Source: Candidatus Methylomirabilota bacterium (GTDB taxonomy: Bacteria > Methylomirabilota > Methylomirabilia > Rokubacteriales > CSP1-6). Taken from it: a stretch of DNA of 17,291 bases. The translations under genes were made by a program, and so were the position numbers. The notes under the pieces are model-generated. The model did no database searches. It was given only the letters and a program-made list of their open reading frames with translations, and was not told the origin of the DNA. This document shows positions 5,457 to 15,540 of the stretch, one piece after another (within the stretch, counting starts at the first letter, position 1; every line of letters starts with the position of its first letter). The stretch is taken from NCBI GenBank assembly GCA_046726415.1, contig JBKPAK010000053.1, positions 1 through 17,291 of the forward strand. The letters are read 5' to 3'.

Positions 5457-6800
5457 TCACCACGACACCTCGTGGGCACCAGGCACGACCACCCGCTTGT
5501 AGCGCTCCGGCGACTCCCCGAGCGGCATCGTGGCGTCGAAGCCCATCTTCGACGAATGGCGGTGCACCGGGGCCGACGGATCGAGTGGCGCGCCGACCAT
5601 GGGCGGAAAGATCATTGCGTCGGCGCTCGGCTGGCACCGGGTATACACGGCCCATAGGACCTGGTTCAGATCGCGCACGTTGACATCGGGGTCGACCACG
5701 ATGCAGTACTTGGCCTGGGGCGCCCCGGCCGTCGGCCCCAGCACGCTGAGAATCACGTTGCGCGCCTCGTAGGCCAGGCGCTTCTTGATCGAGACGATGG
5801 CGAAGTAGTACGGGCCGATGGCATGCACGTCGACGACTTCGGGGCAAGCCTGCTGGGCCATGCGCTTGATGGACTCGCAGATGGCCGGCCACGCCTGCAC
5901 GTGGTTGTCGGTGGTGGGCATGCCGGTGAGGGCCGTCTGGTACATGGCATCGCGCCGCATGGTGACGGCGCTGACCTCGAAGACGTGGCGATCGCCCAGG
6001 AGACCGTAAGTCCCGGCGACTTCCCCGAACGGCCCCTCGGGTTCGCGGACCTTGGGCAGGAAATGACCCTCGATGACGATCTCGGCGTCGGCAGGCACCT
6101 CGGCGTCGACTGTCTTGCAGGTGACCAGCTCGATTGACTGGCCGGCGAGCGCGCCGGCCACGCCCAGCTTTTCCTGGGCATGCGGGATCTTGGCCTGCGA
6201 GCCCAGGTCGACGAATGGGCCGGCGCCTAGCACGACTGCCACGCCGAAGCGCTCGCCGCGGTCCTCCGCCTTCAGCGCGGCACGACCCACCCGGCGCTCG
6301 GCGGGCATGTTGACGCCGAAGCGGCGGGGCCCCTTGAGCTGCATCCGTTGGAGACCGACGCCAAGGACGCCGGTTTCCGGGTCGCGCCCGAACATCACGC
6401 CGGCGGTGAGGTAGCGGCCAGCGTCGAGCTCCGAGTGCACGACGACCGGCAGCCGCGTGCAGTCGACCTCTTCGCCGGTAAGGACCATCTCCTGGCAGGG
6501 CCCGCTCGAGATCCGGCGGGGCGCGATGGGCTTGCGCACCGCCTCGCCGTACCGGTCGACGATCTCGCCGATGGGACAGCGGAGCGCGACGGGCAGGCGC
6601 GCCATCGTGCCGTAGAGCCCTGCCGCCACCTTCCAGCCCGGATGGCCGGTCACGTTCTCGAAGAGGAACGCCGGGCCATCCGTGTCGGACGACTTGCGCA
6701 CATAGGCCGCAATCTCGAACTCGGGGCGAACGGCCTTGCCGATGTGCACGAGCTGGCCGGCGCGGCTGAGCGCTTCGAGGTAATTGCGGAAGTCCGACAT
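5457..6800 (-). CDS. UbiD family (prFMN-dependent) decarboxylase, 447 aa
   Basis: N-terminal MSDFRNYLEAL...GPAFLFENV. Catalytic R152 and EGPFGE (E255/E260). Also VPADAEIVIEG, IVVDPDVN, LDPS and KMGFDAT. SD-like AGGGAG upstream. Confidence 0.92.
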   Translation of the reverse strand: MSDFRNYLEALSRAGQLVHIGKAVRPEFEIAAYVRKSSDTDGPAFLFENVTGHPGWKVAAGLYGTMARLPVALRCPIGEIVDRYGEAVRKPIAPRRISSGPCQEMVLTGEEVDCTRLPVVVHSELDAGRYLTAGVMFGRDPETGVLGVGLQRMQLKGPRRFGVNMPAERRVGRAALKAEDRGERFGVAVVLGAGPFVDLGSQAKIPHAQEKLGVAGALAGQSIELVTCKTVDAEVPADAEIVIEGHFLPKVREPEGPFGEVAGTYGLLGDRHVFEVSAVTMRRDAMYQTALTGMPTTDNHVQAWPAICESIKRMAQQACPEVVDVHAIGPYYFAIVSIKKRLAYEARNVILSVLGPTAGAPQAKYCIVVDPDVNVRDLNQVLWAVYTRCQPSADAMIFPPMVGAPLDPSAPVHRHSSKMGFDATMPLGESPERYKRVVVPGAHEVSW

Positions 6801-6928
6801 GCGTCCTCCCTGTGATCACCCGCGGGCGGCTATCGTAGTATAGGCGGCGGCTGCTGACCACGGCACCACCCTGCTTCACTTTGGGTCGTCCGAGCTTGGG
6901 GTAGCGTTGTCACTCCTGGAGAGGTGCC

Positions 6929-7027
6929 ATGATGAACGTCTACGCGTTCTGCACCGGGTCCATCGAGCTGGACCGCGCCAGCATGATCTCTGATCTGGCT
7001 CCGGGCTAGCGCTGGGCCGTGCCTCTC
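6929..7027 (+). pseudogene. 5' relic of an N-acyl-homoserine-lactonase-like (MBL-fold) gene
   Basis: SD GGAGAGG then MMNVYAFCTGSIELDRASMISDLAPG*RWAVPL, with an in-frame TAG at 7007. It resembles the N-terminus of AiiA/AttM-like MBL hydrolases, and the resemblance ends before any HxHxDH motif. Confidence 0.5.
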
Positions 7028-7071
7028 GCTCTTCGACGCTGGTCACGAGCCCTGAGTGGAATGAGCGCGTG

Positions 7072-7107
7072 TTGACATATTGATGCTTAGCCAGTATGTT
7101 TTGATGC
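7072..7107 (+). promoter_or_regulatory. Sigma70 promoter of vapBC with a direct-repeat operator, leaderless
   Basis: TTGACA (7072-7077), 17 bp spacer, TATGTT (7095-7100). The ATG lies 7 nt later with no SD. TTGATGC is repeated at 7080-7086 and 7101-7107. Confidence 0.75.
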
Positions 7108-7359
7108 ATGCGCACTACGATTCGCCTGAACGAAGAGCTCCTACGCCAGGCGAAGGCACTTGCCGCCCGGACGGGTCGAACGCTCACCGCAGTGATCGAG
7201 GACGCACTGCGCGAGACCCTTGCCCGGCAGCGCAGCCGCCAGGAGCGGCCGCGGGTGGCCCTGCCCACTTTCCGAGGCAACGGCCTGCAGCCGGGTGTCG
7301 ATCTCGACGACACCGCCGGCCTCCTCGACATCATGGACGGCAGCCGTGATCCTTCCTGA
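7108..7359 (+). CDS. vapB: Type II antitoxin VapB (ribbon-helix-helix/CopG-like), 83 aa
   Basis: MRTTIRLNEELLRQAKALAARTGRTLTAVIEDALRE fits an RHH pattern. C-terminal LPTF...PGVDLDD. Overlaps the PIN gene. Confidence 0.88.
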   Translation: MRTTIRLNEELLRQAKALAARTGRTLTAVIEDALRETLARQRSRQERPRVALPTFRGNGLQPGVDLDDTAGLLDIMDGSRDPS

Positions 7360-7774
7360 CGTCAACGTGCTGGTGTACGCGTATCGCGAGGATGCGCCGA
7401 GGCATGACCGGTACCGGATTTGGCTGGAGGGCGTGCTCAATGCGCGTGAGGCCTATGGTCTTTCGGACCTCGTGCTGGCCGGGTTCGTGCGCGTGGTCAC
7501 CCATCCTCGGGTGTTCTCCCCGCCGAGCCCCACGGGGCACGCGTTCGAGTTCGCCGAGGCGTTGCGGGGTCACCCGAACTGCGTCCACGTCGTGGCCGGG
7601 GAGCGCCACTGGGACATTTTCGCCGGGCTGTGTCGCGACGCGCGGACCAAGGGCAACCTCATTCCCGACGCCTATCTGGCCGCGCTCGCCATCGAGTCAG
7701 GAAGCGAATGGATCACGAGCGACCGGGATTACAGCCGCTTCCCCGGTCTGCGCTGGCGCGATCCTGGCGCCTGA
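7346..7774 (+). CDS. vapC: Type II toxin VapC (PIN-domain RNase, mycobacterial-type), 142 aa
   Basis: GTG start, MILPDVNVLVYA...FVRVVTHPR...GNLIPDAYLAALAIE...TSDRDYSRFPGLRW, with conserved PIN Asp residues. Confidence 0.92.
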   Translation: MILPDVNVLVYAYREDAPRHDRYRIWLEGVLNAREAYGLSDLVLAGFVRVVTHPRVFSPPSPTGHAFEFAEALRGHPNCVHVVAGERHWDIFAGLCRDARTKGNLIPDAYLAALAIESGSEWITSDRDYSRFPGLRWRDPGA

Positions 7775-7802: not shown

Positions 7803-8225
7803 ATGCGACGTAAAGCGCCGCTTCCGGCGGAGATCGAACAGCGGCTGGCCACGCTCGGCGCGGTCCTCGAGGCACAGCCGGCGGTCCGGTTCGCCTATGT
7901 GTTCGGGGGGGCGGGACGCGGGACGCTCCGCCCGCTGAGCGACGTCGACGTGGCGGTGTACCTCGACGATGCGGTGGATCCGGTGCAGACGCGGCTCGAC
8001 CTCATCGGCGTGGTGACGAAGCACCTCGGCACCGACGAGATCGATCTCGTCGTCCTGAATCGGGCGGCGACCGCCCTGCTCGGACGTATCTTGCAATCCC
8101 GACGGATCATCGCCGAGAAGGACCCCTTCCTGCGGCACCGCTTCGAGTCGCTCGCGCTCCGGCAATTCCTGGACTTCCGCGTCTTCGAGCAGCGCTTCCT
8201 GGACCGCCGTTTCGCCCGTGGTTGA
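7803..8225 (+). CDS. mntA: Minimal nucleotidyltransferase antitoxin (MNT, type VII TA), 140 aa
   Basis: YVFGGAGRGTLRPLSDVDVAV fits G[GS]x10DxD, followed by EIDLVVLN. Overlaps the HEPN gene by 8 nt. Confidence 0.88.
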   Translation: MRRKAPLPAEIEQRLATLGAVLEAQPAVRFAYVFGGAGRGTLRPLSDVDVAVYLDDAVDPVQTRLDLIGVVTKHLGTDEIDLVVLNRAATALLGRILQSRRIIAEKDPFLRHRFESLALRQFLDFRVFEQRFLDRRFARG

Positions 8226-8631
8226 CCGCGACCTGCTTCGCCGGAAACTGGCGGAGCTGGCGGAATACGTCAACCAGGTCTCCGAGTACCGTGGCCTCAC
8301 GGTCGAGCACTACCGCGCGGAGTGGAAGACCCAGCGCATCGTCGAGCGCACTCTGCAGATGGCGATCGAGGTGTGTCTCGACATGGCGAGCCACATGGTG
8401 GCCGACCGGGGACTGCGCGCACCGACGACGTACGCGGAAACATTCGAGATTCTCGTTCAAGCCAGCCTCATGTCGCCGGGCCTCGGCCGGGCGATGGTCG
8501 CGATGACCGGATTCCGGAACGTCGTCGTCCACGAGTACGCGCGCATCGACGCAGATACGGTGATCAGGATTCTTCGGGAGCATCTGGAGGATTTTCACCG
8601 GTTCGAGACCGAAGCGCTGCGCTGGTTGTAG
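8218..8631 (+). CDS. hepT: HEPN-domain RNase toxin (DUF86/HepT), 137 aa
   Basis: VERTLQMAIE and GFRNVVVHEY, which carries the RX4HXY motif. Directly downstream of MNT. Confidence 0.92.
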   Translation: MVDRDLLRRKLAELAEYVNQVSEYRGLTVEHYRAEWKTQRIVERTLQMAIEVCLDMASHMVADRGLRAPTTYAETFEILVQASLMSPGLGRAMVAMTGFRNVVVHEYARIDADTVIRILREHLEDFHRFETEALRWL

Positions 8632-14875: not shown

Positions 14876-15253
14876 CTACGTGCTCACGAGGTTCAAGCCG
14901 GGGATGTCGCGATAGTCCGGGCCGTTCAGCGTCCACAGACCCGCGCCGTTCGCCAGGGCGCACGCGGCCACTCCGAGGTCGAATTCCCGGTGGCGCGCCC
15001 GCGGCAGCGCGCGATACAGGTCGGAGGCCAACGCCGCTTCCCGAGGACCGAACGGCACCGCGTGCTCAGCCGGGAGGAGCGCCTCCTGGTGAGCGAGCTC
15101 GGATGCGCGGCGCGGTCCGCGCAACCATTCATACAGGACAAACGCCGAGATGGAGATTCGCTCGCCACGATCCAGGATGTCGCGGAGGGCGGGCGCCGAG
15201 CGCCTCGGCCCCGTCAGCGCGTCGACCAGTGCCGAGGTGTCGAGGTGGATCAA
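14876..15253 (-). CDS. vapC: Type II toxin VapC (PIN domain), 125 aa
   Basis: MIHLDTSALVD...VLYEWLRG...REFDLGVAACA...WTLNGPDY. The TTG start overlaps the antitoxin stop by 4 nt. Confidence 0.9.
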   Translation of the reverse strand: MIHLDTSALVDALTGPRRSAPALRDILDRGERISISAFVLYEWLRGPRRASELAHQEALLPAEHAVPFGPREAALASDLYRALPRARHREFDLGVAACALANGAGLWTLNGPDYRDIPGLNLVST

Positions 15254-15540
15254 GGACGCCGCCGGCTTTCCCGACGCCGACCCCAGCGGCGCCGGGACGC
15301 TCGGATCTTTTCGAGCTCTGCGTCCACTTCGGCGCCCGATCGGGTGGGCGGCTCCTGGACCATGCGATCCACGAGCGCCAGCATCCGCGCGCGCTCCTCG
15401 TCGCTCAGCTTGGTGGACCGAGCCTCGTACTCCTTGATGGCTTCGCGGACCACGTAGCTCTGCGGCTTTGCCAGGCGAGATGCCGTCCTGCGCAGGCGCT
15501 CGACGGTCTGGTCATCGAGGGTGAACGTGACCTTTACCAT
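15250..15540 (-). CDS. vapB: Antitoxin, ribbon-helix-helix CopG family (VapB), 96 aa
   Basis: MVKVTFTLDDQTVERLRRTASRLAKPQSYVVREAI fits an RHH pattern. Upstream of and coupled to the PIN gene. Confidence 0.85.
   Translation of the reverse strand: MVKVTFTLDDQTVERLRRTASRLAKPQSYVVREAIKEYEARSTKLSDEERARMLALVDRMVQEPPTRSGAEVDAELEKIRASRRRWGRRRESRRRP

Follow-up and report, generated by a model that had tools for sequence, protein, structure and literature searches.

A UbiD-family protein with glycine, arginine and lysine at the positions of the metal ligands: a candidate metal-independent prFMN enzyme

The UbiD gene and its product

The window, which is the whole stretch of 17,291 nucleotides analysed here, is contig C53 of genome G000 and carries on its reverse strand a gene of the UbiD family whose nearest named homologues come from Candidatus Rokuibacteriota and Methylomirabilota. 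The product, P0001, is of the Lys type, with lysine at the position of the metal-binding glutamate, and belongs to the group termed clade A below. The reading frame is open over 5460-6800 (-) and translates into 447 residues with no internal stop. A promoter scan of the window found none on this strand. The features referred to in the text are as follows.

5457..6800 (-): UbiD-family gene P0001, Lys type, clade A; 447 residues and stop, identified by Pfam, TIGR00148 and fold match
6805..6809 (-): Shine-Dalgarno-like GGAGG seen in the sequence, 4 nt 5' of the P0001 ATG
6360..6362 (-): G147, at the position of the Mn2+-ligand Asn (Fdc1 N168); opposite an Asn in HmfF, AnInD and E. coli UbiD
6345..6347 (-): R152, catalytic Arg (Fdc1 R173); present in 116 of 116 covering rows among the best 120 of 6247 homologues
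6297..6299 (-): E168, which in clade A only might stand in for a metal ligand or form a salt bridge; from alignments
6291..6296 (-): R169-R170, with R170 at the position of the Mn2+-ligand His (Fdc1 H191); from the HmfF and AnInD alignments
6168..6170 (-): K211, at the position of the metal-ligand Glu (Fdc1 E233), the defining change; from alignment and conservation
6021..6038 (-): E255-x4-E260 catalytic motif; from homologue conservation and the RXnEX4(E/D) motif
5901..5903 (-): H300, aligned pairwise to a His of HmfF; His in most clade A rows

The neighbouring genes in the window belong to unrelated families. The segment 1475-5308 (+) encodes the alpha and beta chains of a thiamine-dependent E1, followed by NIPSNAP and by a further E1 alpha; this last gene has no beta behind it, and 148 bp separate its end from the stop of ubiD. 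Three toxin-antitoxin-type arrangements are also found: a ribbon-helix-helix gene with a PIN gene at 7108-7774 (+), with a promoter-like TTGACA-17-TATGTT at 7072-7100, a nucleotidyltransferase and HepT pair at 7806-8631 (+), and a second PIN gene with a small upstream gene at 14876-15510 (-).

P0001 contains the three domains of the family, UbiD_N (PF20695), UbiD (PF01977) and UbiD_C (PF20696), each above the cut-off in a Pfam profile search, and scores 331 bits against TIGR00148 (cut-off 245). It falls under the cut-off of all six named-function NCBIfam models that it matches: VdcC (303 bits, cut-off 650), UbiD PRK10922 (214, cut-off 788), menaquinone decarboxylase (238, cut-off 496), BagN/FevL (139, cut-off 1000) and the phenylphosphate carboxylase alpha and beta models (145, cut-offs 565 and 469). 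In the ESM Atlas it matches generic UbiD clusters alone, and the closest protein in 450 plasmid records is 37.5% identical, so that no near relative is found there.

An AlphaFold2 model, built from a 52-row alignment and containing no ligands, has a mean pLDDT of 86.3. Residues 400-423 are of low confidence, and the block means over residues 141-220, which span the metal site, are 86-98. The best fold match is HmfF, the 2,5-furandicarboxylate decarboxylase of Pelotomaculum thermopropionicum (6h6x; Z 47.7, r.m.s.d. 1.6 for 394 aligned residues, 36% identity), which is also the best sequence match (E 1.6e-76). Fdc1, E. coli UbiD, VdcC, AroY, AnInD, HudA, PhdA, TtnD and Pcd share with P0001 the three Pfam domains, the catalytic motif and the fold (Z 35-41). 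The middle domain has the FMN-binding split-barrel fold (3e4v, Z 13.6). In many split-barrel proteins the flavin phosphate is held by basic residues with no metal. A split-barrel protein of M. thermoautotrophicum anchors the FMN phosphate through a metal held by His, Glu and Asn, according to passages of PMC3650080.

HmfF (6h6v, 6h6x) has the same catalytic triad as P0001, the same Arg before the His site and, opposite H300, a His that is a substrate-binding residue of HmfF. It differs in having Asn, His and Glu where P0001 has Gly, Arg and Lys, and the two proteins are 36-37% identical. P0001 does not qualify as an HmfF orthologue, and a Pfam search of its neighbours recognised no hmf-like genes in the window. 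Since identity is about 37% and hmf-like neighbours are lacking, the automatic label 'furandicarboxylate decarboxylase' carried by homologues is no evidence of substrate.

Residues at the metal site

In A. niger Fdc1, Mn2+ is bound by N168, H191, E233 and K391 (passages of PMC4947166), and the catalytic motif of the family is given as RXnEX4(E/D) in passages of PMC10176493. P0001 carries this motif as R152, E255 and E260. An earlier note on this DNA had described the triad as intact and, by fixed offsets from it, had placed the three ligand positions at G147, R170 and K211; both readings hold, and the span given, 6021..6362, is exact: the G147 codon (6362-6360) opens it and the E260 codon (6023-6021) closes it. 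In the alignment to HmfF 6h6v (chain numbering) N147, H169 and E210 face G147, R170 and K211, with a one-residue gap before R170. The alignment to AnInD 7p9q is gapless from the Asn to the His site and puts its Asn at G147, its His at R170 and a Gly at E168. The Glu column of the local AnInD alignment is shifted by a gap, and the AnInD Glu is visible in a separate alignment. Pairwise alignments with E. coli UbiD and ShVdcC likewise put a Glu opposite K211. The equivalence to the A. niger Fdc1 residues rests on the HmfF, AnInD and T. atroviride Fdc alignments together with the published papers. K364 was considered as the counterpart of Fdc1 K391 and not accepted, as its column pairs with a His/Arg some residues beyond the Lys that we take to be K391 in the alignment used.

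A canonical Mn2+/K+ site would combine Glu with Asn and/or His. The residues G147, R170 and K211 found here lower the likelihood that P0001 is a canonical metal-dependent UbiD, not that it works like a UbiD.

The pattern goes beyond chance, as the best 120 of 6247 matches show; these are 47-100% identical to P0001, and the names of some place them in Armatimonadota, Chloroflexi and Caldarchaeum. Within this set K211 is kept in 120/120, down to 47% identity, and R170 in 118/118 covering rows; position 169 is Arg in 104 and Lys in 11 of 118. Position 147 is never Asn in the 116 covering rows (Gly 93, Leu 8, Ala 7, Gln 5, and Ser, His and Thr one each, with a gap in 4). The joint occurrence of Gly, Arg and Lys in a clade of homologues, which the earlier note had proposed to look for, is found, with Gly in 93 of the 120. 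The catalytic acids are equally constant (E255 in 120/120, E260 in 119/119 covering rows). Against 11 orthologues the dN/dS of P0001 is 0.083-0.153 in 11 of 11 pairs, and Lys211 is encoded by AAG or AAA at every one of these loci, the window included. Because dN/dS is this low and K211 is present in all of the 120 homologues listed, the metal-site change is under purifying selection and is not decay, as had been supposed.

The neighbouring acidic residues E168 and E210 had been named as ligands that might restore coordination. Neither is a convincing candidate. E210 is Glu in just 61/120 of the best 120 of 6247 homologues. At position 168 the 118 covering clade A rows have 112 Glu and 2 Asp, but AnInD has a Gly there and the clade B proteins listed (see below) have Arg in 120/120. 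One of the best 120 homologues, P0096, is chimera-like, with a clade B N-terminal half that includes the metal site and a clade A C-terminal half. The halves join at the conserved Glu motif, and this single member sequence may reflect misassembly or recombination.

Lysine types in the wider family

The three substitutions differ in weight. In solved UbiD structures the Asn site is variable, being Asp in AroY and His in Pcd by alignment. In HudA (PA0254) the metal lies on His188 and Glu229 with Ser165 in the second sphere, according to passages of PMC3650080; Counted from Arg170, Ser165 falls at the Asn site, and the activity of this enzyme is Mn2+- and K+-dependent (passages of PMC7976604). 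The His site is Gly in the alignment to E. coli UbiD. The K211 column contains Glu in 9/9 aligned enzymes (HmfF, E. coli UbiD, ShVdcC, PhdA, TtnD, T. atroviride Fdc, Pcd, AroY and AnInD) and, as reported in passages of PMC3650080 and PMC4947166, in HudA (Glu229) and AnFdc1 (E233); the survey covers these enzymes only. P0001 thus differs from every UbiD enzyme that was aligned or is known from these papers in having Lys rather than Glu here. As the Asn and His sites vary in solved enzymes that keep Glu, the change from Glu to Lys is the decisive and unusual step.

The wider distribution was followed in 232 proteins outside the seed set, a sample biased towards P0001 that gives no family-wide frequency. 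It comprises 141 of the 150 best representatives at 50% identity, out of about 6,000 with E under 1e-10 (the other 9 were not within 380-530 aa), together with 91 of the 94 UbiD frames found at genome loci (the P0001 copy itself and two short frames were left out). The Glu site is Lys/Arg in 46 rows, Glu/Asp in 180 and another residue in 6. Asn is kept in 3/46 Lys/Arg-type rows (P0133, P0214 and P0230) versus 175/180 Glu/Asp-type rows, and His in 2/46 versus 105/180. The rows are related, so the corresponding Fisher values are overstated and are not relied on. After the Glu column itself, Jensen-Shannon divergence between the types is highest at the His and Asn columns (0.81 and 0.80, the next column being 0.45), so that the change does not extend beyond the metal site. 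The catalytic Arg is present in 45/46 and the second acid in 46/46 of the Lys/Arg-type rows. Lys or Arg occupies the Glu site in 33 of the 141 nearest representatives at 50% identity, again in a sample biased towards P0001, and the type is therefore not rare near clade A.

These data modify two earlier proposals. The idea of three coordinated changes stands in so far as all three ligands are gone together; the changes are unequal, and Asn and His also vary in enzymes that keep Glu. The idea that two cationic side chains replace the metal fits clades A and B only, where both residues are present: the His site is Pro in 16/46 Lys/Arg-type rows, and with the His-site Arg not general the single Lys is the common core.

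Other unusual sites were seen in the same sample. Five proteins (P0154, P0157, P0158, P0217 and L075:367-1830) have His at the Glu site with Asn kept, and are perhaps tuned to another metal. Two further paralogues in the P0001 genome have His/His/Glu (L008, G000:C200) and Asp/Arg/Asp (L002, G000:C252).

A tree of 69 rows, hand-picked from 251, was calculated with the metal-site columns excluded (LG+G4, no mixture model, unrooted). The Lys types do not form one group but fall into clades A, B and C (each 95-99% SH-aLRT) and four singletons, and 7 changes are needed. Clade A, which contains P0001, has mostly Gly/Arg/Lys and clade C mostly Ser or Gly/Pro/Lys. Clade B has Thr/Arg/Lys, with Arg at 168, 169 and 170, and draws its members from Alpha- and Betaproteobacteria and Methylomirabilota, including a paralogue from the P0001 genome itself. 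This second Lys-type UbiD (L006, G000:C120, match 6961-7548 (-)) is 36% identical to P0001 and of separate origin.

From these sequences the Lys swap appears to have arisen at least three times in the UbiD family. A different history, in which all Lys types go back to a single old lineage, or Lys is ancestral with returns to Glu, is distinctly unlikely, and would change the history while the biochemistry might stay the same. The tree is unrooted and its model lacks a mixture component, the three clades were delimited only after the first tree had been viewed, and the test rejected 5/71 true clades in its own benchmarks, all of which leaves some room for such a history. Against it, AU tests reject every union tried, both when the 35 Lys rows are joined against the 34 others (p-AU 1.9e-6) and, on 36 rows, for A+B (4e-11), A+C (0.0018), B+C (0.0037) and A+B+C (1e-4). 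Clades A and B are each nested within Asn/His/Glu groups behind starred branches, and a Pcd-like protein has Lys as well. The Glu-type sister of this singleton is already without Asn. In a tree-aware pairs test of Lys with Asn loss, about 5 pairs changed in the same way, 0 in the opposite way and 2 showed no difference (p 0.0625, not significant).

The phthaloyl-CoA decarboxylase-like protein from a Dehalococcoidales MAG (L023:6102-7646 (+); E 2.9e-97 to 8pmk) has Glu/Leu/Lys at the metal positions, and the Glu at its Asn site might pair with the Lys. The paralogue L008 groups with this Pcd-like protein in the tree. For phthaloyl-CoA decarboxylase itself, loss of the cofactor on Fe(II) oxidation has been postulated (passages of PMC8379154).

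Cofactor binding and genomic context

In the UbiD enzymes studied, the phosphate of the cofactor is clamped by Mn2+, held by Asn, His and Glu, and by K+. The metal-site Glu is a shared ligand of this K+. On balance, the sequence comparisons lead us to favour the reading that P0001 is an active prFMN decarboxylase in which Lys211, together with Arg, replaces Mn2+ and perhaps also K+. P0001 would then be a reversible prFMN-dependent UbiD decarboxylase that has lost its divalent-metal site. The ammonium group of Lys211 would occupy the place of the Glu-bound cation and, with Arg169/Arg170, pair directly with the phosphate, and Asn and His would be free to change because no metal is left to bind. 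The expected charge balance agrees, as Mn2+, K+ and Glu add up to +2, as do Lys211 and Arg170. Catalysis would proceed through the unchanged Arg-Glu-Glu triad. The joint absence of all three protein ligands beside an intact triad argues for this metal-free reading. Against it stand E168, which could ligate a metal and is Glu in 112/118 clade A rows, the three Lys-type rows that keep Asn, and the pairs test, which does not reach significance (p 0.0625).

A precedent of a kind is offered by the pyruvate kinases, in which a change of a cation-binding Glu to Lys likewise splits the family and neighbouring residues co-vary (PMC4284704). The Lys117 enzymes are K+-independent and the Glu117 enzymes K+-dependent (PMC4284704, PMC4374775). 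The fold is unrelated, the ion is monovalent and there are two clusters as opposed to at least three Lys clades. The comparison is one of analogy only, and the monovalent ion counts against extending it to loss of Mn2+. As the best precedent, with Lys standing in for K+, it points to a second arrangement, in which Lys211 replaces K+ only and a divalent metal is kept by a rebuilt site made of E168, backbone oxygens and water; such an enzyme would be K+-independent and still need Mn2+. The near constancy of E168 in clade A (Glu 112, Asp 2 of 118 rows) and the tolerance of solved UbiDs to single loss of Asn or His fit this arrangement. It is nevertheless unlikely, since the three protein ligands have disappeared together, AnInD has Gly and all 120 clade B proteins listed have Arg at the position of E168, and Mn2+ beside Lys211 and Arg170 would be electrostatically unfavourable.

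The supply of cofactor bears on whether P0001 uses prFMN at all. Eight UbiD matches, P0001 included, are found in its genome, and a single ubiX above the cut-off (TIGR00421, 236.8 bits; G000:C188), which lies on another contig, is shared with the other 7 ubiD genes and would supply prFMN to P0001. The earlier note had seen no ubiX in the window, and tblastn likewise finds none there. At the loci compared, ubiX is within 5 kb of 3/12 Lys-type genes (at 28 bp, 84 bp and 2.8 kb, the distance of 84 bp being that of the clade B locus L047) versus 5/72 other UbiD genes. The genes that adjoin it are those of clade B and L062; near clade A genes there is none at the 13 loci examined. As ubiX lies near 3 of the 12 loci, at least some Lys types are still in a prFMN context, which suggests continued use of prFMN by Lys types. 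The figure of 0/13 for clade A weighs against the metal-free reading.

It also gives some room to the view that P0001 performs no ordinary prFMN decarboxylation, and either binds unmodified FMN or a different flavin form, or acts towards another UbiD as a prFMN reservoir, a maturation helper or a non-catalytic subunit. The prFMN chaperone LpdD binds prFMNH2 without Mn2+ (PMC10865409), and the metal is suspected to matter for cofactor maturation in passages of PMC10176493. With eight UbiD genes in the genome such a division of labour is conceivable, and locus L033 has both a Lys-type gene and, close to it, a ubiD of the Glu type. The retention of the catalytic Arg (45/46) and of the second acid (46/46), which a non-catalytic role would not need, makes it a rather improbable view. 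The clade B and L062 genes beside ubiX also count against it, and no second ubiD was seen near clade A genes at the orthologue loci examined. Artefact or decay, through misalignment, assembly error or a pseudogene, can be set aside with near certainty: fixed offsets were used at first and one alignment has a gap just before R170, but the AnInD register is gapless at the Asn and His sites, the Lys is opposite Glu in three solved enzymes, the model is well defined here (pLDDT block means 86-98), and 120 listed homologues with dN/dS near 0.1 share the feature.

The feature is real, conserved and broader than the earlier note saw, and metal independence is a good hypothesis for it. The wider proposition, that a sizeable subset of UbiD proteins binds and matures prFMN with neither Mn2+ nor K+, and that this switch evolved at least three and perhaps 7 times in bacteria and archaea, is put forward only tentatively. 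Full-text literature searches turned up no mention of a UbiD that is of the Lys type or metal-independent; supplements and several core structural papers were outside their scope, and the type may have been noticed before. All characterised UbiDs were described in 2017 as using metal-assisted binding (PMC5656893), which, like the dependence of HudA on both ions, speaks against metal independence. The wider proposition, if true, would upset this general view of how UbiD enzymes bind prFMN and provide natural chelator-proof biocatalysts for CO2 fixation or decarboxylation. Natural UbiDs without the metal site make the role of the metal beyond phosphate anchoring, for example in maturation or oxygen sensitivity, directly testable. 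The relevance is mainly to flavin enzymology and to carboxylation biocatalysis, where cofactor loading is a known bottleneck.

The substrate of P0001 would likely be a (hetero)aromatic acid from catabolism, and a molybdoenzyme of the xanthine dehydrogenase family possibly produces or consumes it. Clade A orthologues occur in 12/251 genomes of the class (13 matches, one of them Glu-type), and their neighbours differ among loci. A molybdopterin subunit of the xanthine dehydrogenase family lies 11-171 bp from the orthologue, head to head, in 5/12 (L105, L111, L112, L113 and L114), and 1.6 kb away in the distant member L011. For comparison, such a subunit is within 2 kb of a random G000 gene in 384/19728 draws and of 6/72 non-Lys UbiD loci. 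Four of the five Rokubacteria loci with the divergent neighbour share one orthologous gene (84-88% identity), and the five adjacencies therefore count as one event and are probably one inherited arrangement. The neighbour is absent from the window, and the best match to the subunit in G000 is 49% identical. A molybdoenzyme and a UbiD act together in lumazine breakdown, and the xanthine-8-carboxylate decarboxylase was assayed with K+ and Mn2+ (passages of PMC12391406). The molybdoenzyme context and H300 hint at a heteroaromatic acid in particular, for which the chances are about even.

Assignment of a substrate from synteny was attempted and rejected, because the neighbours vary, the molybdoenzyme adjacency counts only once and similar neighbours also occur beside sister genes of the Glu type. 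L100 and L096 were considered as clade A members and excluded, their metal sites being Asn/His/Glu and Asn/Asp/Glu. At L100:7972-10034 (G013) this Glu-type sister UbiD lies between molybdoenzyme genes and a gene for a 3-hydroxyanthranilate dioxygenase-like protein (3-HAO).
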